A stretch of 64,000 nt of DNA from Kocuria sp. (lineage in GTDB: Bacteria; Actinomycetota; Actinomycetes; Actinomycetales; Micrococcaceae). Each line of letters opens with the position of its first letter. The first letter of the stretch is position 1. Location of the stretch: positions 10,693-74,692 of the forward strand of contig NZ_JAUMTZ010000004.1 in assembly GCF_030530945.1 (NCBI RefSeq), written 5' to 3'. Below are positions 831-56,691 of the stretch, one piece after another. The notes under the pieces are model-generated. The model was not told where the DNA came from. It did no database searches and was given only the letters and a program-made list of their open reading frames with translations. The position numbers and the translations under genes are program-made.

Positions 831-877
831 GTATTTCCCTCCTCGTGCCGCCCAGCCGAGGGGCTCGGCGGCTTTGT

Positions 878-945
878 TTCAAATTTGAACTACCCGTGTA
901 ATGCTCGGCGCCCCCCAACTATTCCCGGGTGGATTGTTGAACAAT
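878..945. promoter_or_regulatory. Two AT-rich palindromes in the divergent LLM/pxpA promoter region; candidate GntR/FadR-type operator sites
   Basis: Seen directly: TTCAAATTTGAA, a perfect 12-bp palindrome at 878-889, and ATTGTTGAACAAT (TTGTT-n-AACAA) at 933-945, about 55-120 nt upstream of the pxpA ATG. GntR-family sites are typically GT-N-AC palindromes. A GntR gene closes the operon. Confidence 0.4.
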
Positions 946-997: not shown

Positions 998-1756
998 ATG
1001 ACGGTCATGGATCTGAACAGCGACGTGGGTGAGTCCTTCGGCGCGTGGACCATGGGGGACGACGCCGCCATCCTCCGCTCCGTCTCGAGCGCGAACGTGG
1101 CCTGCGGCTTCCACGCCGGCGACCCGTCCGTGATGGCCCGCACCTGCCGGGACGCGGCGGCCGCCGGCATCACGGTGGGCGCGCACGTGGCCTACCGGGA
1201 CCTCGCGGGCTTCGGACGCCGGTTCCTGGACTGCACCCCCACCGAGCTCGCGGACGACGTCCTCTACCAGCTGGGCGCTCTGGACGCCGTGGCCCGCGCC
1301 GCGGGGAGCGCCGTGCGCTACGTGAAGCCGCACGGAGCGCTCTACAACACCATCGTCCACCACGAGGCGCACGCCCGGGCCGTGGTGGACGCCGTCGCAG
1401 CATTCGGCGGGGACCTCCCGCTGCTCCTGCTGCCCGGTTCGGCGGCGCTGCGCCTGGCCGGGCGCGCCGGGCTGCGCGGTGTGGCCGAGGCCTTCGCGGA
1501 CCGGGGGTACACGCCGCAGGGCACGCTCGTTCCCCGCAGCGAGCCGGGTGCCGTGCTCCACGACGCCGCGCTGGTCACCGAGCGCATGGTCCGCCTGGCC
1601 GAGGACGGCACCCTCACCGCCGTGGACGGCTCCACCGTGCGCATCCACGCCGAGAGCATCTGCGTGCACGGGGACACCCCCGGCTCCGCGGCCATGGCCG
1701 CCGAGGTCCGTGCCGGTCTCGAACGCGCCGGCATCACCGTGCGGCCCTTCGCATGA
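998..1756 (+). CDS. pxpA: 5-oxoprolinase subunit A / LamB-YcsF family lactam utilisation protein
   Basis: Protein [26 protein letters not shown]...ACGFHAGDP...[13 protein letters not shown] matches LamB/YcsF (PxpA). GGAGG sits 8 nt upstream of the ATG at 998. The stop overlaps the next start (ATGA). Confidence 0.85.
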
Positions 1757-3738
1757 GCGCTCCAGGGCCCACGACCCCGGAACTGCACTGGGCCGGGACC
1801 GAGGCGTTCCTGCTGGACTGCGCCGACCTCGCGGAGGTGACGCGGTGGCACGCCCACCTCACGCGGCACCCGCTGCCCGGTCAGGTGGACGTGGTCGCCG
1901 CCGCCCGCACCGTGCTGGTGGTGTTCACCGGGGCGGGCGCCGCGCGGGAGGCCGCGGGCGCCGTCGCCACCGCCCGACCCGCAGCCTCCCGCGCGGCGTC
2001 CGGGAAAACCGTGGAGATCCCCGTGGTGTACGACGGCGCGGACCTCGCCGAGGTCGCCCGGCTCACCGGGCGCAGCGAGCAGGGGGTGGTGGAGACCCAC
2101 ACGGGTGCCGCGTGGACGGCCGCGTTCGGGGGCTTCGCACCGGGATTCGCGTACCTCACCGCCGCAGGGGACCCGTTGGACGTGCCCCGCCGGGACAGTC
2201 CCCGCACCGCCGTGCCCGCGGGATCCGTGGCGCTCGCGGGCACCTTCTCCGCCGTGTACCCGCGGAGCTCTCCCGGCGGCTGGCAGCTGATCGGGCGCAC
2301 GGACGCGGTCCTGTGGGACGAGCGCCGCGACCCGCCCGCTCTCATCCGCCCCGGGGACACCGTGCGCTACCGGGCCGTGCGGGAGCTGGTCGCCATGACG
2401 GAAGCGGGGAACACGCACGGGTCCGGTGCCGCTGGGGACGACGCCGCGGGGCACGTCACCGCGGCCGGCGCCGGCTCCGAGCGGCCGGACTGCCACCGAA
2501 CGCACCGCTCGCACCCCACCGACCCGCAGCCAGAGGCACCGGGTGACCCGGCAGCGGAGGGCGCGGCACGGTGCGGCCTGGTGGTCGAGGAGCCCGGGAT
2601 GCAGACGCTCGTCCAGGACCTCGGCCGCCCCGGCCTGGGAGACCTGGGGGTCTCGGCGTCCGGGGCCGCGGACCGGGTCTCCGCCGCGCAGGCGAACCGA
2701 CTGGTGGGCAATGCCGAGGGGGATGCCGTCCTGGAGGTGACCCTGGGCGGGCTGTCCGTCACGGCCCGCGGCCACCAGGTGCTCGCACTGAGCGGGGCAC
2801 CCGTCACCGCGACGATCCGCACCCCGGTGGGGGACGAGCGGCCGCCGCTGTCCTCCACCGCGGCGGAGGCCACCGGTTCCCCTCCGGACCTCTCAGGGGT
2901 CGAGCCGGGTCAGGTCACCCGTCCATCCACCCCGTCCGCGGAGGGGCGCACCCGCCCCGCTCCGTTCTGCGCTCCGTTCGCCCTCTACGACGGCGAGCGC
3001 CTCACCCTGGGCGCCCCCACCTCCGGGCTGCGCAGCTACGCCGCCGTGCGCGGCGGGGTGGACGTCCCCGCGGTGCTGGGCAGCCGCTCCACTGACGTGC
3101 TGTCCGGGGTCGGGCCCGCGCCCCTGGCCCGCGGGGACGAGGTGGCCGTGCGCCGGGTGGTGGGAGGGCGCGCCGTCGCCCGGCCCGAGCGCCCCGCCGT
3201 GGCGGCGCCCCGGGGAGAGACTCCGGTGCTCCTGCGGATCTCCCCCGGCCCCCGCGCCGACTGGTTCGCCCCCCACGCGCTGGAGACGCTCACGGACCGG
3301 ACGTGGACCGTGGGCAGCGCCTCCAACCGCGTGGGTGTGCGCTTCGAGACGCCCGGGGACGGGAAGGTCCTGGAACGCGCCCGCACGGGCGAGCTCGCGA
3401 GCGAGGGAGTGGTCGCCGGGTCCCTCCAGGTCCCCCACTCCGGCGTTCCGGTGCTGTTCCTCGCGGACCACCCCGTGACCGGGGGCTACCCGGTGGTCGC
3501 CGTGGTCCTGCCGGAGGACCTGCCGCTCGCCGCGCAGCTCACCCCCGGCTGCGCGGTGCGCTTCCGGCTCGCACCCCCCGGTCCCCGGTCCACTCCGGCC
3601 ACCGCCCCCACCGGGGCGCCCCCTCCTGCCACGACGCCGCCGGCCCCACCCCCTCGGCCCGCCGCCCCACCCACTCCCCCGCCCACGGCTGCGACCACGA
3701 CCACCCACACAGGAGACACACCATGCAGAAGGTCCTGA
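1753..3738 (+). CDS. Fused KipI-KipA (PxpB-PxpC; 'allophanate hydrolase subunit 1 and 2', AHS1-AHS2) protein with about 60-aa Pro/Thr-rich C-terminal tail
   Basis: Begins [26 protein letters not shown] (KipI/AHS1-like). A linker follows, then [20 protein letters not shown]... (KipA/AHS2-like, cyclophilin-type fold family). The first ~700 nt of track ORF 1045-3738 overlap pxpA and are an artifact. Start chosen at the ATG overlapping the pxpA stop. Confidence 0.8.
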
Positions 3739-5465
3739 TCGCCAACCGTGGGGAGATCGCGGTGCGCGTGGTCCGGGCGTGCGCCGACGCCGGGCTGCGG
3801 TCCGTGGCCGTCTACTCCGCACCGGACGCCGACGCACCCCACGTCCACATGGCGGACGAGGCATATGCCCTGGAGGGCTCGGCCCCCGCGGACACCTACC
3901 TCAACGCCTCCGCCCTGCTGGCGGTGGCCGAGCGGTGCGGCGCGGACGCCGTGCACCCCGGCTACGGGTTCCTCTCCGAGAACGCGGACTTCGCCCGCGC
4001 CGTGGTGGCCGAGGGTCTCACGTGGATCGGCCCGGCCCCTGAAGTGATCGAAGCTCTCGGCAACAAGGTCACCGCCCGGGAGATCGCGGTGCGCGCCGGG
4101 GCCCCGCTCGTCCCGGGCACGGACGGACCCGTGGCCGACGCCGCAGAGGTCCGGGCCTTCGTGCGGAAGCACGGCCTGCCCGTGGCCATCAAGGCGGCCT
4201 TCGGCGGCGGGGGACGCGGCATGCGCATCGCCCGGGAGCCGGGCGAGGTGGAACCCGCGTTCGACGCCGCGGTGAGGGAGGCCACCGGGGCGTTCGGACG
4301 GGGCGAGTGCTTCGTGGAGCGCTTCCTGGACCGCCCGCGCCACGTGGAGGCCCAGGTGCTCGCGGACACCCACGGCACCGTGGTGGTGGTGGGCACACGG
4401 GACTGCTCGCTGCAGCGCAGGCACCAGAAGCTCGTGGAGGAGGCGCCCGCCCCGTTCCTCACGGACGAGCAGCGGCGGACCCTGCACGAGTCCGCGCGCG
4501 CCATCTGCCGCGAGGCCGGGTACACGGGTGCGGGCACCGTGGAGTACCTCGTGGCCCCGGACGGTCTCATCTCCTTCCTGGAGGTCAACACCCGGCTGCA
4601 GGTGGAGCACCCCGTGACCGAGCAGACCACCGGGGTGGACCTGGTGCGCGAGCAGTTCCGGGTGGCGCATGGGCTGCCCCTGAGCCTCACCGAGGACCCG
4701 GCCCCGCACGGGCACGCGTTCGAGTTCCGGCTCAACGCCGAGGACCCCGCCCTGGGCTTCCTGCCCACCCCCGGCACGGTGGAGGCCTTCGAGGCCCCCA
4801 CGGGAGCGGGAGTGCGGGTGGACGCGGGCGTGCGCTCCGGCTCCACCGTCCCCGCCGAGTACGACTCCCTGCTGGCCAAGCTGATCGTGTGGGGCGAGGA
4901 CCGGCAGCAGGCCCTCGTCCGCTCCCGGGCCGCCCTCCGGGAACTGCGGATCCGTGGACTGCCCACGGTGGCGCCGTTCCACCGGGCGGTGCTGGAGGAC
5001 CCCGCGTTCACCTCCCCGGACACGCTGGGCGTGCACACCACGTGGATCGAGGAGGAGTTCGCCGCGCGGCTGGAGGCCTCCCCCCACCTCGCCCCGGACG
5101 CGGTCGGGCGCACCTCGTTCACGGTGGAGCTCGACGGGCGCGCGGTCCGCGTGGGGCTGCCGGCAGAGCTGGCGGCCGCGCTGCTGCACGGGGGCGGTGC
5201 GGGAGGGGACGTTCACGCCGGTGGCGGCCCGGCGGCGTCGTCCCCCGGAGGCGACGCCGCCCTGGCCGCTCCCCTGGACGGCACCGTGGTCACGTGGCTC
5301 GCGGAGGACGGCGAGGAGGTCCGTGAGGGGCAGCCGGTGCTGGTGGTGGAGGCCATGAAGATGGAGACCCCGGTGCGCGCCCACCGCGGCGGCACCCTGA
5401 CCCGCGCGGACGTGGCGGAGGGCGACGCCGTGCGGCGGGGCCAGCGCCTCGGGGAGATCGCGTGA
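3723..5465 (+). CDS. Biotin carboxylase fused to biotin carboxyl carrier domain (acyl-CoA carboxylase alpha-subunit-like)
   Basis: [19 protein letters not shown]... ATP-grasp biotin carboxylase. C-terminus [12 protein letters not shown] is the biotinyl-lysine (AMKM) motif. AGGAGA lies 8 nt upstream of the ATG. It overlaps the KipIA gene end by 16 nt. No carboxyltransferase (AccD/PccB-type) gene is adjacent. Confidence 0.85.
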
Positions 5466-6166
5466 GCGCCGGGACCGAGGACGCCCAGGCGGGCGTGCAC
5501 GCGGCGGCCACCCTGCGGAGCATGATCTCGGACGGCGCCCTGCGCCCCGGGGAGAAGCTGTCCGAGGAGGCGGTGGCACGCCGGTTGGGCATCTCCCGGA
5601 ACACCCTGCGGGAGTCCTTCACCATGCTCGCCACGGAGAACCTGGTGGACCGCATCCCCCACCGCGGCGTGTTCGTGGTGAACCCCTCTGCCGGAGAGGT
5701 TCGCGACCTCTATGCCGCCCGCTGCATACTCGAGCCCGCCGCGGTGCTGTGGGGCGCGGTGGACGGGCCCCTCCTCACCCGGCAGCGCAACACCGTGGCC
5801 GCGGCGCTGGCCGCACGGGATGCGGGGGACGTGGCAGGCATGGCGGACGCGAACCAGCGCTTCCACCGCGATCTGGTGGCCGCTGCCGGCTCCCCCTCCC
5901 TGCTGGCGGACATGGACCGGCTGCTGGCGCGCATGCGGCTCGTTTTCCACACCATGGCGGCCGATCCCCGGTTCCACGCCCGCTACGCCGCTGACAACGC
6001 GGACGTGCTGGCCGCCCTGGCGGACGGGGACCGCGAACGGGCCGCGCAGCTCGTGCGGGCCTCCCTCACGGCCGCGCGGGACGAGCTGCTGCGGAACCTG
6101 GGCGAGCTGCCCGCGGCTCAGGACCAGAGCGCGGCGAGACCCGCGAGCGAGTGCCAGGCCAGGTAG
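5462..6166 (+). CDS. GntR family transcriptional regulator (FadR/FCD C-terminal domain type)
   Basis: N-terminal w[26 protein letters not shown] followed by an FCD-like helical domain. GTG start overlaps the BC-BCCP stop (GTGA). Confidence 0.8.
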
Positions 6167-7329
6167 ACGGTGAGCAACCACGCGAGCACGCCCACCACCA
6201 GGAGCCACACCGGGTAGCGGTAGCCGTGCAGCAGGTCCCTCCGACGCCAGCCCACCCAGAGCAGGAGGGCGAAGCCGAACGGCAGGATCAGCCCGTTGAA
6301 GGCGCCCGCGAAGATCAGCAGGGTCTGCGGTGCCTTGCCCAGGAACAGGTATGCCACGCCGCACACCAGGATGAACCCCACGGTGAGCAAATTGCGGGTG
6401 CGGGGGCGGCTCCCCGAGGACGTCACGAACGAGATGGACGTGAACGCCGCGCCCACGACGGATGTGAGGGCGGCCGCCCACAGCACCACGCCGAAGATCC
6501 GCACGCCGATCTCACCGGCGGCCGCGCCGAACGCGTCCGCGGCCATGTGGTCCCCGGACAGCGCCACGCCGCCAGCGACCACGCCGAAGATCGCGAGGAA
6601 CAGCAGCACGCGCATGATCCCGGTGACCATGATCCCCAGCACGGAGGTGCGCGTGATGTGGCGGACGTTCTCAACCCCGGTCACACCGGAGTCGATCATC
6701 CGGTGCGCCCCCGAGTAGGTAATGTAGCCGCCCACGGTGCCGCCGATGAGCGTGGTGACCACCAGGAAGTCCACCTTCTCCGGCAGCACGGTGTTCCTGA
6801 GCGCCTCCCCCACGGGAGGTGCTGCCACCACGGCCACGTACAGCATGAGCAGGATCATCACCGCACCCAGGCCCACCACGATCCGGTCCAGGGCCAGCCC
6901 CGCGCGCCTGGACAGGAACACGAGGACCGCGATGCCCGCGGAGATGGCCCCACCGATCCGGGGGTCCAGCCCCAGCATGGCGTTCAGCCCCAGCCCGGTG
7001 CCCGCGACGTTGCCGATGTTGAACACCGCTCCGCCCAGGAACACGAGCGCGGCCAGTGCGTACCCGGCCCCGGGCAGCACGCGGTTGGCCAGTTCCTGCG
7101 CGCGCAGCCCGGAGACGCCGACGACCCGCCACACGTTCAGCTGCACGGCGACGTCCACCAGGATGGACAGCAGGATGGCGAACGCGAACGCCGCCCCCAG
7201 CTGCACCGTGAACACAGTGGTCTGGGTGATGAACCCGGGGCCGATCGCACTCGTGGCCATGAGGAACATGGCACCCAGCAGCGCGCGCCGGTGACCGGCG
7301 GCGGGCGGGTGCGTGCTCGACGTCGTCAC
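6118..7329 (-). CDS. NRAMP-family (YcsG-like) divalent-metal/solute transporter; start uncertain (GTG 7329, or ATG 7269/7260)
   Basis: Multi-TM protein with MATSAIGPGFITQTTVF..., the NRAMP TM1 signature region. B. subtilis ycsG (NRAMP family) sits in the ycsF-kipIA operon context. The track start at 7440 would overlap the upstream gene by 100 nt, so a later start was chosen. Its 3' end overlaps the GntR gene convergently by 49 nt. Confidence 0.65.
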   Translation of the reverse strand: MTTSSTHPPAAGHRRALLGAMFLMATSAIGPGFITQTTVFTVQLGAAFAFAILLSILVDVAVQLNVWRVVGVSGLRAQELANRVLPGAGYALAALVFLGGAVFNIGNVAGTGLGLNAMLGLDPRIGGAISAGIAVLVFLSRRAGLALDRIVVGLGAVMILLMLYVAVVAAPPVGEALRNTVLPEKVDFLVVTTLIGGTVGGYITYSGAHRMIDSGVTGVENVRHITRTSVLGIMVTGIMRVLLFLAIFGVVAGGVALSGDHMAADAFGAAAGEIGVRIFGVVLWAAALTSVVGAAFTSISFVTSSGSRPRTRNLLTVGFILVCGVAYLFLGKAPQTLLIFAGAFNGLILPFGFALLLWVGWRRRDLLHGYRYPVWLLVVGVLAWLLTVYLAWHSLAGLAALWS

Positions 7330-7336
7330 GAGCGGA

Positions 7337-7855
7337 TCAGTGCAGGATGGGCAGCTGGAACGGGTAGCGGTAGGCCTCACCGTGCCCGGCCTTGACGGCG
7401 GCAATGATGTGGACCACGAACAGGAGAACCCAGTACGCACCCATCAGGATGAAGCCGACGGGCAGCAGGATCACCGTGAACACGCAGATCCACCCCACCA
7501 CGTTGATGAGCCACAGGGTCACGTTGAAGTTGAACGCCCCCGCGGAGGCGGCGCGCAGGAACGGGCTCTTGTTCTTGTAGATGAACCAGACGATGAGCGG
7601 CCCCAGGAAGCCGAGCGAGCCCACGGAGACGAGAGCCGCGATGGGCCCGGCCAGGTGCGTCAGCACGGCCACGGTCTTCTCGTCGTCCCGCGGTCCGGAG
7701 GAGCCCATGCGGTTCCCGCCGGGAGCCCCGGGGCCCGGGCCGTAGCCGGGGCCACCGGGGTAGCCGCCCTGCGGCCCGCCGGGCTGTCCCTGGCCACCGG
7801 GGTGCCCCTGGTGGGCGCGGTAGTCGGGGCGCGGCTGCTGCGGTTCGTAGCTCAT
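7337..7855 (-). CDS. DUF4870-type small membrane protein with Gly/Pro-rich N-terminus
   Basis: MSYEPQQPRPDYRAHQGHPGGQGQPGG... then two TM segments (LIVWFIYKNKSPFLRAASAGAFNFNVTLWLINVVGWICVF...). ATG at 7855 has GGAG upstream. The track's longer N-terminus is an off-target extension. Confidence 0.6.
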   Translation of the reverse strand: MSYEPQQPRPDYRAHQGHPGGQGQPGGPQGGYPGGPGYGPGPGAPGGNRMGSSGPRDDEKTVAVLTHLAGPIAALVSVGSLGFLGPLIVWFIYKNKSPFLRAASAGAFNFNVTLWLINVVGWICVFTVILLPVGFILMGAYWVLLFVVHIIAAVKAGHGEAYRYPFQLPILH

Positions 7856-13239: not shown

Positions 13240-14697
13240 TCACTTCCGCCGGGGGTTGAGCCCGCGCAGGGTGGTGGAGAGCACGGAGGCGAACGCGGTC
13301 CACCCGGCGTAGGGACTGAGCACCACGGCCTTCTCCGGAGAGATCTTGGCGCTGCGCCGCACCAGGTCCGCGGAGCTGACCGCGAGCAGCACGGACTCCA
13401 CGGCGGCCGCGCCCAGCCGCTTGCGGTTGAAGAACAGGACGCTCCACCCGGCGTTCAGCGCCAGGTTCACGCCGAGGGCGGTCGCGTACGCGCGCTGCTC
13501 GTCGGTGCGCCCCTGCTCCCCCAGGTCCGCGATGGACAGGGAGCCGATCGCGGCGATGTCCGCGTACAGCGCCGTCCACGCCACGGGGAACAGCCATGCC
13601 GGGGGCTGGAAGGACGGCTTGCGCAGCGTCTTGTACCAGAGGGTGTCCGGGGCGCTGGCGAGCGTGCCCACCACCGCCGTGGCCGCCACCGCGGCTGTGG
13701 TCGCGGAGAACACGCGGCGCCACCGGTTGGTGTCCAGGTCCTTGGTGGCCGCCCGCACGGCGTCCGCGAAGGAGGTGTGCCCGCCCTCGGGGGCGCCGAT
13801 GTAGTCGTCCAGGTCCCGCTCGTGCATCACGGTGTCGTGCTGCAGGCTGCCGATCAGCGGCCGGGCCAGCTTGGAGCTGATCGGAGTGACCAGCCCGATC
13901 CAGTTGGCAGCCAGCCCGGGGGTGGTCACCGGCGCGGTGAGCATGAAGCGCCGGCCCTTGCCGGTGGCGCAGGCGTACTGGTCCAGCATGTCCGCGTACT
14001 CGATGGACTCCGGCCCGCCCACGTCGAACGTGCGGTTCACGTCCGCTGGGAGGTCCGCGGCGCCCACGAGGTAGTGCACCACGTCCGCCACGGCGATGGG
14101 CTGGATGCGGTTGCGCACCCAGCGGGGGGCGATCGCACCCGGCAAGCGCTCCGCGAGGTGGCGGATCATGATGAAGGAGGAGGACTCGTCCCCGATCACC
14201 ACGCCGGTCTGCAGCGCGGCGGTGGGCACCCCGGAGTCCATGAGGGCCTGACCCACCTCCACGCGGGAGCGCAGGTGGTCGGAGAGCTCGGAGACGGGCT
14301 CGTCGTCCGGGTGCAGACCGCCCAGGTAGACGATGCGCTCCACGTGGGCGTCGTGCGCGGCGGTGGCGAAGGTCTTGGCCATCTCCACCTCCTCCTGCAC
14401 GAAGTTCTCGGAGTCGCCCATGGAGTGCAGCAGGTACCAGGCCACGTCCACGTCCTGCAGGGCGCGGGAGATGTCCGCGGCCTCGGAGGCGTTGCCCTCC
14501 ACGACCTCGGCCTGCCCGGGCCCGGCGGAGCGGCCCTTCGCCACCACGGCGTCGCCCCAGGGCAGGTCGCGGACCTTCTCGGCGCTGCGGCTGAGCAGAC
14601 GCACCCGCCAGCCCCGCCGCAGCAGCTCCTGGGCCACCTGGCCGCCGATGTATCCCGTGGCGCCCGTGACGAGAGCCAGCCGTGCGTTGTCACTCAT
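13240..14697 (-). CDS. Fusion protein: N-terminal NmrA/SDR-like NAD(P)-binding domain plus C-terminal complete TspO/MBR (tryptophan-rich sensory protein) domain
   Basis: N-terminus MSDNARLALVTGATGYIGGQVAQELLRRGWRV is a Rossmann GxxGxxG motif. C-terminus WYKTLRKPSFQPPAWLFPVAWTALY...ALNAGWSVLFFNRKR...LSPYAGWTAFASVL aligns motif-for-motif with bacterial TspO, including a TM1 before WY. Confidence 0.7.
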   Translation of the reverse strand: MSDNARLALVTGATGYIGGQVAQELLRRGWRVRLLSRSAEKVRDLPWGDAVVAKGRSAGPGQAEVVEGNASEAADISRALQDVDVAWYLLHSMGDSENFVQEEVEMAKTFATAAHDAHVERIVYLGGLHPDDEPVSELSDHLRSRVEVGQALMDSGVPTAALQTGVVIGDESSSFIMIRHLAERLPGAIAPRWVRNRIQPIAVADVVHYLVGAADLPADVNRTFDVGGPESIEYADMLDQYACATGKGRRFMLTAPVTTPGLAANWIGLVTPISSKLARPLIGSLQHDTVMHERDLDDYIGAPEGGHTSFADAVRAATKDLDTNRWRRVFSATTAAVAATAVVGTLASAPDTLWYKTLRKPSFQPPAWLFPVAWTALYADIAAIGSLSIADLGEQGRTDEQRAYATALGVNLALNAGWSVLFFNRKRLGAAAVESVLLAVSSADLVRRSAKISPEKAVVLSPYAGWTAFASVLSTTLRGLNPRRK

Positions 14698-14830
14698 GTG
14701 TCGTTCCCGTCCTGTGCGAGGGGTGTCCGGGTGCGTCACCCGGCAGTGGCGCGGAACCGCCTGTGCTGGTGCCAGTATGTCAGCCTGCTGAGGGGTTCCA
14801 CCACGGGCTCCGCCGGGGGCGGGACCGGCC

Positions 14831-32598: not shown

Positions 32599-33732
32599 GT
32601 GCCCGAACGTCCGCGCCAACCCCGCCCCGGTGCCGTCCCAGCATCCCCGGACGACGACGCCGCCCGCCCCCGTCCCGGCGCGCCCGCACCCCGTAGAGCG
32701 GGGCACCCGGCCGCCACCCCCGTGACCGCACCCCGCCCGGCGTGGGCCGCCGAGGGCGAGGAGTTCACCGTGGACCTGGACCCCGGCCGGTTCCTGTGCG
32801 TCCGCGCGGACGGGCCCGCGGACGGGAACCCCCTGGTGCTGCTCACCGGACTGGGCTTCGACCTGCACACCTGGCCCCCGGCCCTGGTGCGGGTCCTGGC
32901 CGGGCGGGGACACCGCGTGCTGCGCTTCGACAACCGGGACGTGGGGCGCTCGTTCCGAGTGGCAACGCCCACCCCCACCGTGCGTCAGCTGCTGGGCGGA
33001 GACCTGCCCGCCGAGCAGTACACCGTGGAGGACATGGCCGGGGACGTGGCGGCCGCCCTGGACGTGCTCGGGGTGCAACGGTCGGACGTGCTCGGCTTCT
33101 CCCTGGGCGGGATGATCGCCCAGTCCCTCGCGGCGCACCACCCGCACCTGGTGCAGCGGCTGGTCTCGCTGTGCTCCACCACCGGGGACCCCACCGCGGG
33201 CGGGGCAGCCGCCTCCACCGCCGCCATGCTCGCCCTGCCGGGGGCGAGGACCCGGAGGACCTACGTGCGCTCGCGTCTGGTCATGGCCCGGCACCTGGCC
33301 GGGACGGGTTTTCCCGTGGACCTGGACCACGAACGTGAGCTGGCGCGGACCCACTGGGACCGCAGCCTGGACCCGCGGCAGGAAGGGGCCGCCCTGCGTC
33401 GTCAGATCGGGGCCATCCGCGCCTCGGGCAACCGCGGCGAGGCACTGGCCCGGATCACCGCGCCCACGCTCGTGCTGCACGGGGACCGGGACCGGATCGT
33501 GCGTCCGGACGGCGGGCCGGCCACGGCCCGAGCGATACCGGGAGCGTGCTTCGTCCGCGTGCCCGGCATGGGGCACCAGGTGCATCCCCTGCTGGTTCCC
33601 AGGCTGGCCCGGCTGGTCTCGGAGCACCTGGCCCCGGTCATCGAGCCACGACGACACGGGCACCATGCCGCCCCACTCGGCGCAGGCACCCGTGATACCA
33701 AGGACACCACCACCCTCTCCGAGCGCGGGTGA
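32599..33732 (+). CDS. Alpha/beta-fold hydrolase; start uncertain (N-terminus low-complexity)
   Basis: Nucleophile elbow GFSLGG, LVLLTG motif region, and a C-terminal His (GMGHQVH). 30-nt gap to lysX in the same orientation. Confidence 0.65.
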   Translation: MPERPRQPRPGAVPASPDDDAARPRPGAPAPRRAGHPAATPVTAPRPAWAAEGEEFTVDLDPGRFLCVRADGPADGNPLVLLTGLGFDLHTWPPALVRVLAGRGHRVLRFDNRDVGRSFRVATPTPTVRQLLGGDLPAEQYTVEDMAGDVAAALDVLGVQRSDVLGFSLGGMIAQSLAAHHPHLVQRLVSLCSTTGDPTAGGAAASTAAMLALPGARTRRTYVRSRLVMARHLAGTGFPVDLDHERELARTHWDRSLDPRQEGAALRRQIGAIRASGNRGEALARITAPTLVLHGDRDRIVRPDGGPATARAIPGACFVRVPGMGHQVHPLLVPRLARLVSEHLAPVIEPRRHGHHAAPLGAGTRDTKDTTTLSERG

Positions 33733-33761
33733 TCCCGGGCGTCACCCGTGGACACCGGAAA

Positions 33762-36700
33762 GTGACAACTGTGAAGACATCGCGTGACTGGCTGCCACGG
33801 CTTGCCAGCACCCTCGTGCTGCTGGCCTCCCTGTGGTCCTTCGTCTCCATCCCGTTCGCCCGCAGGGGCTCCCTGTACTGGGTGGACGAGGTCTTCAGCA
33901 CCCTGGGTGTGCCCTCCGGGCCCAACCTCTTCCTGGCGCTGAGCCTGCTGATCGTGGGCACCTCGCTGCGGCGGCGGCTGCGCGTGGCGTGGGTGATCTC
34001 CCTGGGCGTGCTGATCGTGGAGCTGCTCGTGTTCGCGGTCCTGGGTGTCGCCCTGGTCACGGAGTCGGTGGACGTGGAGCTCGAGCTGCTGGAGAGCGCC
34101 GTGCTGATCGCCGGGGCGGCCATCACCACCGCGTGGACCGTGGCGTTCATCGTCCATCGCAAGGACTTCCCGGCCCGGATGCGCTCCGGCGCGGTGCGCC
34201 AGGCCCTGCTCACGCTGCTGGGCGGCCTGGCGACCGTGATCGCGCTCATCTTCCTGGTCTCGTGGGTGGTCCCGAGCCACCTGCACCACCTGCACGGGGT
34301 GGAGCACGTGTGGTTCTCGTTCCGCAGCGTCACGGGGCTGTCCCTGCCCCGCAGCATCTCCGACGGTTCGGCCGGGCCCCACTGGCTCACGGTCCTGGGC
34401 GGCGTGCTGGGCGCGGCGGTGCTGTTCTTCACGGTCTGGCAGTTCACCCAGTCCGCGCAGCGCTCCGAGGTGATCAGTGCCGAGGACGAGCTGCACATCC
34501 GCCGGCTGCTGGCCACGTACGGCGGCCAGGACTCGCTGGGCTACTTCGCCACCCGCCGCGACAAGTCCGTGATCTTCTCCCCGGACGGCCGCGCGGCGGT
34601 CTCCTACCGGGTCATCGGCTCGGTCTGCCTGGCCTCGGGGGATCCCCTGGGCCCGCACGACGCCTGGCAGGACGCCATCGCCGCCTGGAAGCGGGAGGGC
34701 CGGGAGCACGCGTGGCACCTGGCCGTGCTCTCCGCCTCGGAGACCGGCGCACAGGCGTACGTGGCCGCCGGGCTGCGCGCCCGCCCGCTCGGGGACGAGG
34801 CCGTCCTGGACACGGACACCTTCTCCCTGGAGGGGCGCACCATGCGCCCGGTCAAGCGCGCGGTGGCCCGCGTGCGGGAAGCCGGCTGCACCGTCACGGT
34901 GGAACGCCACGGACAGCTGGACGCCGCCACCATGCAGCAGGTCATCGACCTCTCCGAGAAGTGGCGCGGGGACGAGGCCGACCGCGGCTTCTCCATGGCC
35001 CTGAACCGGCTCGCGGACCGCACGGACGCCCGCTGCGTGGCGGTGCTGGTGCGCGACGCCACCGGAGAGATCGTCGCCCTGCAGTCCTACGTGCCGTGGG
35101 GCACGCGCGGGATCTCCCTGGACCTGATGCGCCGCTCCCCGGACGCCCCCAACGGCGTGAACGAGGCCATGGTCGCGGCCCTCGCCGAGGACGGCGGGGA
35201 CCTGGGAATCCGCGAGATCTCCCTGAACTTCGCCATGTTCCGCTCGGTGTTCACCGGCGCGGACAAGGTGGGCGCCGGGGTGGGCGTGCGGATCGCGGAC
35301 CGGGTGCTCTCCTGGGGCAACCGGTTCTGGCAGCTGGAGTCCCTCTACGAGGCCAACGCCAAGTACCTGCCCCGCTGGGACAGCCGCTTCCTGTGCTACG
35401 ACTCCGCCGCGGACCTCCCGCTCGTGGGCATCGCCGCGGGCCGCGCCGAGGGCTTTCTCCCGGGCCGCGCACCCCGCCCCGGCCACGACGGCGAGACGCT
35501 CGTTCCCGGCCCCGACGGCACACCGACGCCGCTCGCGGACCTCTCGCTCGCCCAGGACCGGGAGCTGCTCACCCCGCCGCGCCCGGTGCGCCACCTCACG
35601 GAGCAGCAGCGGGTGCGCCACGCCAAGCTGGACGTGCTGCGCGAGGCAGGCATGGACCCCTACCCGGTGGAGGTCCCCTACACCACCTCGGTGCCGCGGG
35701 CCCTGGAGATGATCGCGGACGGCACCGCGGAGGCCACCGGCGAGGTGGTCTCGGTGGGCGGGCGCGTGCGCGCGCTGCGCGACCTGGGCGGCGTCGTCTT
35801 CGCGGTGCTGGAGGAACGGGACCAGCGGATCCAGGCGGTCCTGGAGGAGAACGCGGTGGCGCCCGAGCTCATGCGGCTGTGGCGGCGCGCGGTGGACGTG
35901 GGCGACCACGTGTCAGTGACGGGCACGCTGGGCCGCAGCCGCCGGGGTGAGCCCTCGGTGCTGGCCACGTCCTGGTGCATGGCGTCCAAGTCCCTGCGCC
36001 CGGTGCCGAGCGAGCACACCGGCTTCACCAATCCCGAGGCCCGGGTGCGCCAGCGCTACCTGGACCTGATCGTGAACAAGGAGTCCTCCCAGCTGCTGCG
36101 GGCGCGCTCGCGCGGGATCGCCGCCATGCGGCAGTCCTTCACGGAGCGCGGCTACATGGAGGTGGAGACCCCCATGCTGCAGGCGGTCCACGGCGGCGCG
36201 AGCGCCCGCCCGTTCCGCACGCACATCAACGCGTACAACGCGGACCTGTACCTGCGCATCGCACCGGAGCTGTACCTCAAGCACCTCTGCGTGGGCGGGA
36301 TGGACAAGATCTTCGAGCTCAACCGCAACTTCCGCAACGAGGGCGCGGACGCCACCCACAACCCCGAGTTCACCTCCGTGGAGGCGTACGCGGCGCACGG
36401 CGACTACAACACCATGCGCGTGCTCACCCGTGAGGTCATCATCGAGGTGGCCACCGCCATCCACGGTGAGCCCGTGGCGGTGCGCCCGGACGGCCACGGC
36501 GGGCAGACCCGCATCCGTCTGGACCACGAGTGGCCTGTGATCCCCGTGCACCGGGCGGTCTCCGAGGCCACCGGCACCACCCTGACCTCCACCACCCCGC
36601 TGGAGGAGGTGCGCGCCGTGGCCTCCGCGCACGACGTGCACTGGAACGAGAACATGACCGCCGGTGAAGTGGTGCTGGAGCTCTACGACGAGCTCGTGGA

Positions 36701-37079
36701 GGGCCAGACCACCCTGCCGGTGTTCTACACGGACTTCCCGCTGGAGACCTCCCCGCTGACCCGCACGCACCGCACGGACCCCCGGCTCTCGGAGCGCTGG
36801 GACCTGGTGGCGTTCGGGGCGGAGATCGGCACCGCCTACTCCGAGCTCGTGGACCCGGTGGACCAGCGCAACCGGCTCACCGAGCAGTCCTTCAAAGCCG
36901 CCGCGGGTGACCCGGAGGCCATGGAGGTGGACGAGAACTTCCTCACCGCCCTGGAGTACGCGATGCCTCCCACGGGTGGCCTGGGGATCGGCGTGGACCG
37001 GCTCATCATGATGCTCACGGGCACGAACATCCGCGCCACCCTGGCGTTCCCGTTCACCCGCCCGAACGAGCAGCGCTGA
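33762..37079 (+). CDS. lysX: Bifunctional lysylphosphatidylglycerol synthetase (MprF-like membrane domain) / lysine--tRNA ligase
   Basis: N-terminal polytopic MprF/DUF2156-type domain. C-terminal class II LysRS (anticodon-binding OB fold; catalytic motifs FRNEG, GGLGIGVDRLIMMLTG). This architecture matches mycobacterial LysX. Confidence 0.85.
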   Translation: MTTVKTSRDWLPRLASTLVLLASLWSFVSIPFARRGSLYWVDEVFSTLGVPSGPNLFLALSLLIVGTSLRRRLRVAWVISLGVLIVELLVFAVLGVALVTESVDVELELLESAVLIAGAAITTAWTVAFIVHRKDFPARMRSGAVRQALLTLLGGLATVIALIFLVSWVVPSHLHHLHGVEHVWFSFRSVTGLSLPRSISDGSAGPHWLTVLGGVLGAAVLFFTVWQFTQSAQRSEVISAEDELHIRRLLATYGGQDSLGYFATRRDKSVIFSPDGRAAVSYRVIGSVCLASGDPLGPHDAWQDAIAAWKREGREHAWHLAVLSASETGAQAYVAAGLRARPLGDEAVLDTDTFSLEGRTMRPVKRAVARVREAGCTVTVERHGQLDAATMQQVIDLSEKWRGDEADRGFSMALNRLADRTDARCVAVLVRDATGEIVALQSYVPWGTRGISLDLMRRSPDAPNGVNEAMVAALAEDGGDLGIREISLNFAMFRSVFTGADKVGAGVGVRIADRVLSWGNRFWQLESLYEANAKYLPRWDSRFLCYDSAADLPLVGIAAGRAEGFLPGRAPRPGHDGETLVPGPDGTPTPLADLSLAQDRELLTPPRPVRHLTEQQRVRHAKLDVLREAGMDPYPVEVPYTTSVPRALEMIADGTAEATGEVVSVGGRVRALRDLGGVVFAVLEERDQRIQAVLEENAVAPELMRLWRRAVDVGDHVSVTGTLGRSRRGEPSVLATSWCMASKSLRPVPSEHTGFTNPEARVRQRYLDLIVNKESSQLLRARSRGIAAMRQSFTERGYMEVETPMLQAVHGGASARPFRTHINAYNADLYLRIAPELYLKHLCVGGMDKIFELNRNFRNEGADATHNPEFTSVEAYAAHGDYNTMRVLTREVIIEVATAIHGEPVAVRPDGHGGQTRIRLDHEWPVIPVHRAVSEATGTTLTSTTPLEEVRAVASAHDVHWNENMTAGEVVLELYDELVEGQTTLPVFYTDFPLETSPLTRTHRTDPRLSERWDLVAFGAEIGTAYSELVDPVDQRNRLTEQSFKAAAGDPEAMEVDENFLTALEYAMPPTGGLGIGVDRLIMMLTGTNIRATLAFPFTRPNEQR

Positions 37080-52044: not shown

Positions 52045-53025
52045 TCAGTACTTGCGCAGGTGCAGGGGTGCCTGCCCCCGCCAGTGCTCCCGCAGCAGGT
52101 TCACCACCATGCGGTGCAGGGCCGCGATGGCTTCCGTGGAGTGGGCGAGGGAGCGCACGCACACGCAGCGCACCCCGTACGGCTCCCCCACCCCGGCGCG
52201 GGTGATGCCGGACCGGGTGCCGGAGGCGTCCACGGCGGCGGTGAGCAGCTCGTAGACCTCGTCGGTGAGTCGGGCGTCCGCGACCAGCAGCTGCCCGGTG
52301 TGGCTGTGGCCCTCCATGAACCCCGTGCCGGTGATGTCCCCGTGCGCATCCGGCTGGATCCGCAGCTGGTCCACCACGAGCCGCCGGGCGGGGGCCTGCG
52401 GGCTGGTGGACGGCGGGAGCACGCGGACCTCGGTGCGCATTCGCAGCTCGTCGTACGCGAAGGACTCCCCGGACGGGGACCACCCGGGTGTCACGACCTC
52501 GGCGAGCAGCAGGGACGCCGTGGGGTCCATGTCCACGCGCGTGCGCTGCAGGTAGGACCCGCCCCGGTAGACGATCAGCTGGTCCGGCACGTACTCCAGG
52601 CAGCTGCCCGGCCCCAGCCGCACGCGCATCTCCTGGGACGCCGGACCCTGCGGCGTGCGGTACACCTTGGTGGCCGACTGCGTGGTCAGGGCCAGGGAGG
52701 CATCCTGCTCCACGGCCACGTCCAACAGGTACGCGTCCGCTCCGAAGTACGCGCCCCCGGGGTTGATCGCCGTGTAGGTGACCTGCCCGGAGCGGTCCAG
52801 GTAGTGCGGCCGCAGCACCCGCAGCGCGCCCTCGTGGAACTGCCGGGCGGCGTACGAGCGCCCGTCCCGCGCGGCCACGGTCAGGCGCAGCTGTCCGGCC
52901 CAGTTGTCAGCGCCGGTTCCGCCGGGCGTTCCGAGAGCGGACGACGGTGCCGCGCCCGTCCGCGCGTCCGGCACCCGGGGTGCCGGCGGCGTCGTGGTTC
53001 CCCCTGCGCCCGGCGTCTCAGGCAA
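52045..53025 (-). CDS. ureD: Urease accessory protein UreD/UreH
   Basis: Position after ureG and UreD-like sequence (…LRVLRPHY…[17 protein letters not shown]…). N-terminus Pro/Ala-rich; start approximate. Confidence 0.7.
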
Positions 53026-53629
53026 GGTCGAGCATGAGGACGTCGTTGCGGATCCAGTCCTGGACCTGGTCCAGGCCCTCGTCCGTCTTGAGGTTGGTGA
53101 ACGCGAAGGGCTTGTCCTTCCGGAACACCTTGGAGTCCGCGGCCATGACGTCCAGGTCCGCGCCCACGTGCGGGGCCAGGTCCGTCTTGTTGATGATGAA
53201 CAGGTCCGACTTGATCATCCCCTGGCCGGCCTTGCGGGGGATCTTCTCGCCCTGGGCCACGTCGATCACGTAGATGGAGAAGTCCACGAGCTCGGGGCTG
53301 AACGTGGCGGAGAGGTTGTCCCCGCCGGACTCCACGAAGATCACCTGCAGGTCCGGGAAGCGCTTCTTCAGCTGCTCGATCGCGGCCTCGTTCATGGAGG
53401 TGTCCTCGCGGATGGCGGTGTGCGGGCAGCCGCCGGTCTCCAGGCCGATGATCCGCTCCTCCGGCAGCACCGAGTTGCGCGCCAAGATCTTGGCGTCCTC
53501 GATCGTGTAGATGTCGTTGGTGATCGCGGCCATGGAGATCTCCTGGCTCATGGCCCGCGTGATGCGCTCCACGAGCTGCGTCTTGCCCGCTCCCACGGGG
53601 CCTCCCACACCGATGATGACGGGATCCAT
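53018..53629 (-). CDS. ureG: Urease accessory GTPase UreG
   Basis: P-loop [14 protein letters not shown] metal-binding motif, NKTD. AGGAGGACAG upstream of the ATG. Confidence 0.9.
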
Positions 53630-53748
53630 GCTGTCCTCCTGAGTTCTCGTTCTCTGCTGTTCGTCTCTGGGCGCCGCGGAATGCCTCCGGGCGCTGCCGG
53701 GTCTCCGCGCGGCGTCGTCAGGATGGCGCACGGTCACCCCGCGCCCGC

Positions 53749-54975: not shown

Positions 54976-56691
54976 TCAGAACAGGAAGTACCGCTGGGCG
55001 AGGGGCAGCTCCGTGCGGGGTTCGCACGTGACGGGCGTGCCGTCCACGCGCACCTCGTACGTCTCCGGGTCCACCCGCAGCTGCGGCGTCTCGCCGTTGA
55101 ACTTCATGTCCGCCTTGGTGAGGGAGCGGATGTCCCGGCACTCGCGGACCACCTTCTCCAGCCCGAGCGAGCGGGGCACCCCGGCCTGGATGGAGGCCTG
55201 GGACATGAACGTGATGGACGAGCGGGCCGCGGCCTTCCCGTACGCCCCGAACGCCTTGCGGTACCAGCGGGGCTGCGGCGTGGGGATGGACGCGTTCGGA
55301 TCACCCATGACCCCGTGGACCATCTGGCCGCCCTTGATGATCAGGTCCGGCTTCACCCCGAAGAACTTGGGCTCCCACAGCACGAGGTCCGCGAACTTGC
55401 CCTCCTCCACGGAGCCCACCGCGTGGGAGACGCCGTGCGCGATGGCGGGGTTGATCGTGTACTTGGAGATGTAGCGCTTGATGCGGTGGTTGTCCCCCAC
55501 CGAGCCCTCGTCCTCGGGCAGCTGGCCACGCTGGCGCTTCATGGAGTCCGCCACCTGCCACGTGCGCAGCACCACCTCGCCCACGCGGCCCATGGCCTGG
55601 GAGTCGGAGGATGTCATGGAGAAGATGCCCATGTCCTGCAGCACGTCCTCCGCCGCGATGGTCTCCTTGCGGATGCGCGAGTCCGCGAACGCCACGTCCT
55701 CCGGGATGTCCGGGTTGAGGTGGTGGCACACCATGAGCATGTCCAGGTGCTCCTCGATGGTGTTGCGCGTGTACGGCAGCGTGGGGTTGGTGGACGCCGG
55801 GAGGATGTTCGGGTCCTGGGCCAGCTCGATGATGTCCGGGGCGTGGCCGCCACCCGCTCCCTCCGTGTGGAACGTGTGGATCACCCGCCCCGCGATCGCC
55901 GCGCGGGTGTCCTCCACGAACCCCGCCTCGTTCAGGGTGTCCGTGTGGATGGCCACCTGCACGTCGTACTCGTCCGCCACCTGCAGGGACGTGTTGATGG
56001 ACGACGGCGTGGCACCCCAGTCCTCGTGGATCTTCAGCCCGATCGCACCCGCCCGGATCTGCTCCGCCATGGGGGAGATCGACGAGCCGTGGCCCTTGCC
56101 GAGGAGCCCGAAGTTCATGGGGAACTCCTCGAAGGAGCGCAGCATGTTGTGGATGTTCCACTCGCCCGGGGTGATGGTGGTGGCCTTGGAGGACTCGCTC
56201 GGCCCCGTGCCGCCGCCGATCATGGTGGTGATCCCGGAGACCAGGGCGGTCTCGATCTGGTCCGGGCTGATGAAGTGGATGTGGGAGTCGATCCCACCCG
56301 CCGTGAGGATCTTGCCCTCTCCGGCGATCACGTCCGTGGCCACGCCGATCACGATGTCCACCCCGTCCATCACATGGGGGTTCCCGGCCTTGCCGATCTT
56401 CTGGATGTGACCGTCCCGCACGGCGACGTCCGCCTTGTAGATGCCCGTCCAGTCGATGACCACCACGTTGGTGATCACCAGGTCCGGGACCCCCACGTCC
56501 CGCACCAGCTGCCCGTTCTGACCCATGCCGTCCCGGACCACCTTGCCACCGCCGAACACGGCCTCCTCGCCGGGCGTGGTGAGGTCCTTCTCCACACGCG
56601 CGAAGAGTTCCGTGTCCGCCAGGCGGATCGCGTCCCCGGTGGTGGGCCCGTACAGGCTCGCGTACTGGTCCCTGCTCATCTCAAAGCTCAT
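54976..56691 (-). CDS. ureC: Urease alpha subunit
   Basis: Full-length amidohydrolase with HxH Ni ligands (IDSHIHF), the carbamylated Lys region (LKIHEDWG) and MVCHHL. Confidence 0.95.

Follow-up and report, generated by a model that had tools for sequence, protein, structure and literature searches.

5-Oxoproline (pyroglutamate) arises spontaneously in every cell, and the PxpABC system is the main bacterial route for its recycling. Uncoupled hydrolysis of the ring is unfavourable, with an equilibrium constant of about 0.035, so that ring opening needs energy coupling, and how PxpABC achieves this without a recognisable nucleotide-binding domain is still only 'assumed'. The question is raised again by a locus at the left end of a 64,000-nucleotide stretch of Kocuria sp. 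contig NZ_JAUMTZ010000004.1 (the whole stretch is referred to here as the window; its G+C content is about 76%), in which pxpA and a fused pxpB-pxpC gene are followed directly by a gene encoding a biotin carboxylase (BC) together with biotin carboxyl carrier protein (BCCP) in one polypeptide. Does this ring-opening enzyme draw its energy through biotin?

We lean, if modestly, towards the view that the operon is a 5-oxoproline utilisation system under a PxpR-type repressor and encodes a biotin-dependent 5-oxoprolinase. The best explanation of the arrangement is a ring-opening enzyme built of five modules instead of three, comprising PxpA, the fused PxpB-PxpC protein (PxpBC) and a dedicated BC-BCCP. 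That the five proteins of the locus work together as a single 5-oxoproline system, in which BC-BCCP partners PxpBC, we hold with good confidence; the specific chemistry, N-carboxylation by analogy with urea carboxylase, is put forward more tentatively. The pxpABC system itself is already known, and what is new here is its joining to a BC-BCCP of its own under a 5-oxoproline-type operator.

Organization of the operon

The locus consists of four rightwards-transcribed genes and a fifth that is transcribed towards them (Table 1). A terminator-like hairpin marks the upstream boundary, and no terminator-like site was found on the + strand between about 900 and 7300. A GGAGG ribosome-binding site precedes pxpA at 987–991. 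The pxpA and pxpBC genes overlap by 4 nucleotides (nt) in an ATGA, as read from the sequence; the BC-BCCP gene starts with an ATG at 3723, 9 nt downstream of an AGGAG, and reaches back 16 nt over the end of pxpBC, whose TGA is at 3736–3738; and the BC-BCCP and GntR genes overlap by 4 nt in a GTGA. By these overlaps all four genes are translationally coupled. The GntR and Nramp genes converge, and their 3′ ends share 49 nt (6118–6166). Much of this layout had been called in an earlier sequence-only reading, and Pfam, the coordinates and the junctions bear it out: the KipI and KipA modules are fused, the BC+BCCP gene overlaps the fusion and carries an intact AMKM (in the biotinyl-lysine motif EAMKME, near the C-terminus), a GntR gene closes the operon, and a YcsG-like NRAMP permease gene converges on it. 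The same reading saw no AccD/PccB-type carboxyltransferase nearby, and a tblastn search of the whole 64 kb with an AccD seed likewise gave no match. Neither a second BC, nor an allophanate hydrolase (AtzF-like), nor a hydantoinase-type oxoprolinase is present within the 64-kb window. Pfam recognises a single ATP-binding domain across the operon, the ATP-grasp of the BC, and finds no nucleotide-binding domain in PxpA or PxpBC.

Table 1. Features of the pxp operon (window coordinates)
Feature	Coordinates	Strand	Evidence or remark
Terminator-like hairpin followed by a T-run	855–869	+	Marks upstream operon boundary
PxpR-type operator ATTGTTGAACAAT, perfect 6-1-6 palindrome	933–945	.	53 bp 5′ of the pxpA ATG
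pxpA, LamB/YcsF-family lactam hydrolase subunit, 252 amino acids	998–1756	+	Pfam LamB_YcsF (PF03746), E 1e-98
Fused pxpB-pxpC, 661 amino acids, CT_C_D then CT_A_B	1753–3738	+	Pfam
Putative dedicated BC-BCCP, 580 amino acids, AccA3-like paralogue	3723–5465	+	Pfam Biotin_carb_N, ATP-grasp, Biotin_carb_C and Biotin_lipoyl
GntR/FCD regulator, probable PxpR counterpart	5462–6166	+	Pfam GntR and FCD
YcsG/PxpT-type NRAMP-family permease	6118–7329	-	Pfam Nramp

The operator and the probable substrate

The substrate and the reaction had been left open when the locus was read from its sequence, and the region 5′ of pxpA now offers a candidate for the former. In Corynebacterium glutamicum the pxpTABC genes are needed for growth on 5-oxoproline, as is PxpT individually, which is an NRAMP-family permease; the divergently transcribed GntR protein PxpR represses the pxp operon, binds 5-oxoproline with a dissociation constant of 726 nM, and has as its target the inverted repeat AGATTGTTCAACAATCT (PMC13274462). 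The core of that repeat is identical to ATTGTTGAACAAT in the window, which is the sole match in the 64 kb with two mismatches allowed. A first pattern, TTGTN5ACAA, gave no match, and the right one came from reading the sequence. The operator overlaps a −35-like TTGAAC (937–942), and a conserved CATGCT (961–966) lies 18 nt downstream; the proposal of these −35/−10 hexamers rests only on phylogenetic footprinting, a scan with the sigma-70 consensus having found no promoter.

In an alignment of seven Micrococcaceae pxpA upstream regions all 13 operator positions are invariant, and there are just three conserved islands, namely the operator, the CATGCT and the ribosome-binding region. Every Micrococcaceae locus that includes the region 5′ of pxpA has the exact 13-mer or its 11-bp core there. 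Of the 21 other pxp-linked loci described below, 18 carry the operator in promoter regions, and the BC loci without pxp genes have neither 13-mer nor core. In the Pseudomonas, Nocardioides, Kineococcus and Microbacterium loci it lies in the divergent region between the GntR and NRAMP genes, and a tandem pair is found 5′ of the NRAMP gene where this forms a separate unit (loci L001/L002, L005, L006, L008, L010, L054 and L086). A single match in a Klebsiella plasmid locus falls inside a transposase gene and is a chance occurrence.

The regulator encoded in the window has GntR and FCD domains and the operator ATTGTTnAACAAT is present, so that the protein is probably the counterpart of PxpR, a 5-oxoproline-sensing repressor, its orthology resting on position and operator. 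By the same comparison the GntR and NRAMP genes appear to correspond to PxpR and PxpT, and the PxpR operator core 5′ of pxpA makes 5-oxoproline the likely substrate.

A dedicated biotin carboxylase

Among proteins of solved structure, BC-BCCP is closest to mycobacterial AccA3 (738 bits over its full length), the next biotin carboxylase other than AccA3 scoring 503 bits. A scan of one genome per species gave 80 loci, each of which was searched with the Pxp, GntR and NRAMP proteins of the window, and these fall into three groups. The pxp-linked proteins are 60–73% identical to that of the window and are encoded directly 3′ of pxpA, pxpB and pxpC in Citricoccus, Arthrobacter, Nesterenkonia, Nocardioides, Kineococcus, Microbacterium, Promicromonospora, Pseudomonas and Paracoccus. 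The housekeeping proteins, which include the Kocuria rhizophila copy, are 54–63% identical and have no pxp neighbour, and many of their genes have maf just before them or an AccD-type gene within 7 kb. A small third, AccA3-like clade adjoins an AccD-type gene and a gene for an HpcH-family lyase. Of the BC loci without pxp genes, 30 have an AccD-type gene no more than 7 kb away, and none of the pxp-linked loci has one close by. Neighbour-joining gave 100% bootstrap support for the housekeeping clade and 70% for the pxp-linked one, with the window protein outside the housekeeping clade.

Both types are present in the same genomes. Chromosome CP134048.1 carries a pxp-linked BC-BCCP at 2.20 Mb and a maf-linked housekeeping AccA at 1.57 Mb, and Kocuria tytonis and K. 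salsicia each have both; the idea that BC-BCCP is the only AccA of the organism was rejected because a housekeeping AccA coexists with it in these relatives. The 19 proteins of the pxp clade retain each of the 84 alignment columns in which other BCs show at least 97% invariance, and AMKM is present in all 19, which suggests that the BC is under selection as a working enzyme. We conclude from these comparisons that the window BC-BCCP is a dedicated paralogue and not the acyl-CoA carboxylase subunit of the cell. The refuting condition set by the sequence-only reading, clustering with acyl-CoA carboxylase alpha subunits, was checked, and the outcome speaks for a dedicated partner: the protein is nearest to the AccA3 type, yet it falls outside the maf- and AccD-linked housekeeping clade and coexists with the housekeeping gene.

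Distribution and mobility of the module

The combination of pxp genes with BC-BCCP is widespread and mobile, and is not rare. Conservation of the gene neighbourhood had been suggested as a check, and the same module recurs in the 21 other loci that were fetched, from Actinobacteria, Pseudomonas and Paracoccus, as well as on plasmids of three phyla. In these relatives pxpA, pxpBC and BC-BCCP are immediate neighbours, and wherever gene calls could be used their stop and start codons overlap or abut. Citricoccus, Arthrobacter, Nesterenkonia and another Kocuria-like genome have the module as in the window, and a second gene order is found in Pseudomonas, Nocardioides, Kineococcus, Microbacterium, Promicromonospora and Paracoccus.

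Probing plasmids by tblastn with the PxpC domain gave 402 matching records, 98 of them from Klebsiella, and 11 contexts were sampled at even steps down the ranking. BC and BCCP are adjacent in seven of these (Klebsiella, Sinorhizobium, Lactiplantibacillus, Bradyrhizobium, Diaphorobacter, Paraburkholderia and Sulfitobacter, representing three phyla) and not in the other four (Salinivibrio, Agrobacterium, Deinococcus and Methylobacterium). On the Klebsiella pneumoniae IncF plasmid pKPN-80a (locus L088; NZ_CP009865.1, 72461–87297) the order is GntR / NRAMP – PxpA – hydro-lyase – fused PxpBC – fused BC-BCCP, flanked by the insertion sequences (IS) IS21, IS110 and IS903 and adjoining pco copper-resistance genes. 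The fused BC-BCCPs of the Klebsiella and Sinorhizobium plasmids group with the window protein. This locus, the number of Klebsiella records and the grouping with the actinobacterial type of BC suggest horizontal spread, with Actinobacteria probably as the source.

On the Lactiplantibacillus, Bradyrhizobium, Diaphorobacter, Paraburkholderia and Sulfitobacter plasmids, pxpB and pxpC are flanked by split BC and BCCP genes of an AccC-like lineage, and Pseudomonas aeruginosa PA0492–PA0496 has the same composition, with split BC and BCCP genes alongside pxp genes. BC and BCCP thus appear to have been recruited next to PxpBC independently, from two unrelated lineages, and the module to have been assembled more than once. 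As the outgroup of the BC-domain tree we used the BC of Pantoea urea carboxylase, which is only 43% identical to the window BC. In a tree of PxpC proteins those linked to fused BC-BCCPs form one clade, whose sister is MSMEG_0435 of Mycobacterium smegmatis, and those accompanied by split BCs are interspersed among canonical unlinked proteins, Escherichia coli YbgK for instance. The pxp cluster of a Bradyrhizobium guangxiense plasmid (L092, 3515–8161) includes two separate biotinyl-carrier genes, one before the BC gene and one between pxpC and pxpA, with nac regulator and amino-acid ATP-binding cassette (ABC) transporter genes adjacent. PxpC-type proteins are named 'biotin-dependent carboxyltransferase family protein' or 'biotin-dependent carboxylase-like uncharacterized protein' in databases, where the association of pxp genes with biotin is therefore already implicit; no paper proposing or testing a biotin-dependent 5-oxoprolinase was found in the literature searched.

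PxpA and the PxpB-PxpC fusion

PxpA scores above the cut-off of the NCBIfam PxpA subfamily NF003814 (360 versus 226 bits), and among proteins of solved structure it is closest to PH0986, PA4511, TTHB195 and the E. coli protein YbgL. In PxpBC the CT_C_D domain (PxpB/KipI) occupies residues 10–197 and is followed by CT_A_B (PxpC/KipA) up to residue 605, with unusually long low-complexity linkers at about residues 215–285 and 355–410 and a Pro/Thr-rich tail at 606–661. Both Pfam domains are strong, and scores against the NCBIfam equivalogs are below their cut-offs (168 versus 500 for PxpC, 137.1 versus 145.55 for PxpB), as is that against TIGR00724 (229.4 versus 230.2); the equivalog scores would be lowered by the fusion and the low-complexity insertions. 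The link of PxpB to KipI (2zp2) is one of homology, and since Micrococcaceae are not known to sporulate a KipI/KipA-type role in inhibiting KinA is unlikely here.

Among solved structures the two halves of PxpBC are nearest to M. smegmatis MSMEG_0436 and MSMEG_0435 (PDB 3MML and 9YX5; E about 1e-53). The second of these entries is the 2026 electron cryomicroscopy structure of the M. smegmatis long-chain acyl-CoA carboxylase, in which MSMEG_0435 tightly holds the biotin carried by a BCCP domain of AccA3; its authors describe this biotin as 'positioned to participate in a carboxylation reaction' (PMC13012033). The partners that touch in 9YX5 are thus the nearest solved homologues of the products of two adjacent, translationally coupled genes in the window. 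In the urea carboxylase of Kluyveromyces lactis the general base is K1605 (PMC5770610), within the sequence GTKYNPSRT; the corresponding PxpB motif is PRRDSPRT here and PRKSSPRP in Bacillus subtilis KipI, and a by-eye alignment, uncertain and with a 5-residue indel adjoining, places a basic residue opposite K1605. A screen of 150 representatives for Rosetta-stone fusions found a lone PxpB-PxpC-BC single chain (P0373, 1030 amino acids), which is either a degenerate scaffold or a gene-calling artefact across overlapping genes and is weak evidence for a partnership of PxpBC with BC.

The permease gene and ycsI

The function of YcsG/PxpT-type permeases is disputed, with import of 5-oxoproline (PMC13274462) and of Mn2+ (PMC10448178) both reported. 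The window permease is intact, being full length and 89% identical to the copy in the sister genome (L086). Comparison of 7330–7340 of the window with 13540–13895 of the L086 locus reveals a deletion of about 300 bp between the DUF4870 and NRAMP genes, which removed a hairpin terminator, two tandem PxpR-type operators, the promoter, the ribosome-binding site and a 5′ extension of the NRAMP open reading frame, such that the NRAMP gene now begins 8 nt past the stop codon of the DUF4870 gene. The window permease is probably no longer under control by 5-oxoproline.

A YcsI-type 'D-glutamate cyclase' gene (PF07286) is located between the GntR and NRAMP genes in 14 of 19 pxp-linked loci, and a YcsI gene likewise belongs to the ycsF-ycsG-ycsI-kipI-kipA operon of B. 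subtilis. No such gene occurs in the 64 kb of the window, and this absence accounts for the convergence of the GntR and NRAMP genes and their 49-nt overlap.

Proposed mechanism and alternatives

In the mechanism that we propose, the GntR/FCD repressor would sit on ATTGTTGAACAAT over the −35 region and leave it on binding 5-oxoproline, as in C. glutamicum. The BC domain, to judge from its conserved residues and the AMKM motif, would use ATP and bicarbonate to carboxylate the biotin of its own BCCP, which would then swing into PxpBC, a homologue of urea carboxylase's carboxyltransferase domain; such binding of BCCP-biotin is known for MSMEG_0435-0436/AccA3 only. PxpBC might transfer the carboxyl group to the lactam nitrogen, giving an imide-like N-carboxy lactam in the way that urea is converted to allophanate, and PxpA would hydrolyse the activated ring to N-carboxy-glutamate, which would spontaneously shed CO2. 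The predicted net reaction is 5-oxoproline + ATP + 2 H2O → glutamate + ADP + Pi, with bicarbonate acting catalytically. The sequence-only reading had proposed that BC, BCCP and a KipI/KipA 'carboxyltransferase' rebuild a urea-carboxylase-like enzyme from separate polypeptides, and this holds on the comparative evidence; nothing in the literature examined establishes its premise that PxpABC works without biotin.

A broader version is that all PxpABC-type '5-oxoprolinases' are biotin-dependent amidolyases, in which PxpBC is a carboxyltransferase that takes carboxybiotin from a BCCP. ATP dependence would then come through a dedicated BC where there is one and otherwise through housekeeping AccB/AccC or AccA3, as in E. 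coli, B. subtilis and C. glutamicum, and the MSMEG_0435-0436/AccA3 complex would be a catalytic encounter and not only a regulatory one. The interleaving of BC-linked and unlinked PxpCs in the tree supports this extension, which we nevertheless regard as rather doubtful. The founding PxpABC study (Niehaus 2017) reportedly assayed cell lysates, in which endogenous BCCP would be present, and no assay of purified PxpABC was found in the literature searched, which did not cover that study.

Several observations weigh against a biotin-dependent 5-oxoprolinase. Published accounts take it that PxpBC phosphorylates 5-oxoproline directly at the expense of ATP, a mechanism described only as 'assumed', and C. 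glutamicum (PMC13274462), E. coli and B. subtilis use pxpABC genetically with no BC-BCCP in the cluster; a dedicated BC-BCCP is therefore not universally needed, and the proposal must assume that a housekeeping BCCP is borrowed in these organisms or that the chemistry there is different. In the interpretation of the authors of the 9YX5 structure MSMEG_0435-0436 is a regulator; they saw no activity as a urea carboxylase and note that key urea carboxylase residues are missing (PMC13012033). In M. goodii the MSMEG_0436/0435 homologues (L100, 7323–8885) have neither pxpA nor BC nearby and sit between a Vut_1 transporter gene and an acetyltransferase gene, which suggests that the AccA3-binding mycobacterial pair is not part of a recognisable 5-oxoprolinase operon; the function of the mycobacterial pair may have diverged. 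Support for the pxp-linked BCs as a monophyletic clade is only 70%, and they are paraphyletic in a tree of the BC domain alone. The BC part of P0373 is degenerate, with its glycine-rich loop and catalytic motif lost and no C-terminal BCCP, and in the window strain itself the operator region of the transporter gene has been lost and ycsI is missing.

As an alternative, a split biotin-dependent carboxylase/amidolyase could act on another small amide or lactam, such as a urea-like compound or a hydantoin, and the sub-threshold equivalog scores of PxpB and PxpC, together with a PxpR assignment that derives from the operator and not from protein comparison, would permit this. So would other BC-linked pxp clusters, such as those of Diaphorobacter and Sulfitobacter, which have a LysR regulator and a TorT-type sugar ABC system, as differing regulators and transporters imply that substrates may differ across the family. 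We nonetheless think another substrate improbable for the window, where PxpA is above its subfamily cut-off, the operator core is identical to that of a proven 5-oxoproline sensor and is conserved across the subfamily, a PxpT/YcsG-type permease and, in the relatives, a YcsI gene complete the known 5-oxoproline gene set, and a nickel urease is present without an allophanate hydrolase. An ordinary ATP-using PxpABC, with BC-BCCP either a mere passenger or the catalyst of a separate carboxylation within the same pathway or regulon, would accord with the published working model in which PxpBC phosphorylates 5-oxoproline, and with the ability of pxpABC alone to complement 5-oxoproline growth defects in C. 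glutamicum (PMC13274462). This too we judge unlikely: Pfam sees no ATP-binding domain in PxpA or PxpBC, PxpBC is the sole acceptor-specific carboxyltransferase in any of the clusters, two unrelated BC/BCCP lineages have been recruited beside it, the genes are translationally coupled, and the whole module moves between IS elements on plasmids.

BC-BCCP could also be the alpha subunit of an acyl-CoA carboxylase, with its AccD partner encoded elsewhere and with regulation by PxpBC, as its full-length similarity to AccA3 (738 bits) and the reduction of propionyl-CoA carboxylase activity by about 50% in vitro on addition of MSMEG_0435-0436 (PMC13012033) might suggest. The coexistence of a maf-linked housekeeping AccA in CP134048.1, the position of the pxp-linked proteins outside the housekeeping clade and the lack of AccD near their genes, when even the AccA3-like third clade has AccD adjacent, make this quite improbable, and it is hard to see why a fatty-acid enzyme should be controlled through a 5-oxoproline-type operator. 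Least probable of all, in our estimation, is that BC-BCCP is a decoy that absorbs PxpBC on induction and spares the biotin of the essential housekeeping carboxylase. MSMEG_0435 does sequester the BCCP biotin and partly inhibits the carboxylase (PMC13012033), and the catalytically degenerate BC part of P0373 could be only structural; but a BCCP domain alone would suffice for such a purpose, yet all 84 invariant BC positions are kept in all 19 clade members, and split BC genes are also retained in other phyla.

Implications

With this operon, the energy coupling of 5-oxoprolinase and the role of the Rv0263c/Rv0264c family both become open to direct test. If the proposal of a biotin-dependent 5-oxoprolinase is correct, N-carboxylation followed by hydrolysis, so far known for urea and also for guanidine, would be extended to a lactam, the long-standing annotation 'biotin-dependent carboxylase-like uncharacterized protein' would be explained, and a function would be assigned to a module that is carried by many Klebsiella plasmids. 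It would also give a catalytic reading to the complex of MSMEG_0435-0436 or Rv0263c-Rv0264c with AccA3, which has been tied to survival of Mycobacterium tuberculosis during transmission (PMC13012033).

Other features of the window

At 56247–56535 (+) there is a match to the Rfam family 5_ureB_sRNA (81.6 bits), antisense to the urease alpha-subunit gene (54976–56691, -), with UreG at about 53018–53700; conserved coding sequence of the urease, and not a small RNA, is the most likely source of this match. A LysX-like fusion protein of 1116 amino acids is encoded at 33729–37079 (+), and combines a transmembrane region, a lysyl-phosphatidylglycerol synthase C-terminal domain and a class II lysyl-tRNA synthetase. 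The gene at 13240–14739 (-) encodes a TspO/MBR domain fused to an NmrA/epimerase-type NAD-binding domain, and the same fusion is found near the L086 pxp cluster.

Comparison with known systems

The LamB/YcsF, CT_C_D and CT_A_B families are common to the window operon and to C. glutamicum pxpR/pxpTABC, B. subtilis ycsF-ycsG-ycsI-kipI-kipA and E. coli ybgJKL, and a GntR/FCD regulator and an NRAMP-type permease are also shared with the PxpABC systems that include PxpR and PxpT. The window differs in having a BC-BCCP gene between pxpC and the regulator gene, coupled to both, in the fusion of PxpB with PxpC and in the absence of ycsI; its regulator is co-transcribed at the 3′ end of the operon, whereas that of the PxpR system is divergent.

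Urea carboxylase and urea amidolyase (K. lactis 3VA7 and 5I8I; bacterial Uca with AtzF) use the same four domain families, BC, CT_A_B, CT_C_D and BCCP, and a logic that matches the one proposed here, with ATP- and biotin-driven N-carboxylation activating a stable amide for the hydrolysis that follows. However, urea carboxylase is a single chain in the order BC – CT_A_B – CT_C_D – BCCP, whereas the window has two genes with CT_C_D before CT_A_B, and this reversed order argues for an independent fusion. Scores of 133 and 506 bits are well short of the TIGR02712 (urea carboxylase) cut-off of 1304; the CT_A_B part of a bacterial urea carboxylase has only 29% identity to the window, and its CT_C_D part is not detected by tblastn. 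The hydrolase is of the LamB/YcsF family in the window and an amidase-signature allophanate hydrolase in the urea systems, and the window carries a conventional nickel urease and no allophanate hydrolase. A decayed or fragmented urea carboxylase was rejected given the permuted domain order, the low identity and the lack of allophanate hydrolase in the 64 kb.

The actinobacterial acyl-CoA carboxylase alpha subunits (AccA3, AccBC and AccA2) have the same BC – linker – BCCP architecture and length as BC-BCCP and 56–63% identity to it, but the window protein is not maf- or AccD-linked, belongs to a separate clade and is encoded under a 5-oxoproline-type operator. The closest solved counterpart of PxpBC and BC-BCCP together is MSMEG_0435-0436 with AccA3, in which the partner is a housekeeping AccA3 and the pair has no adjacent pxpA or dedicated BC, whereas in the window BC-BCCP appears to be dedicated to PxpBC.

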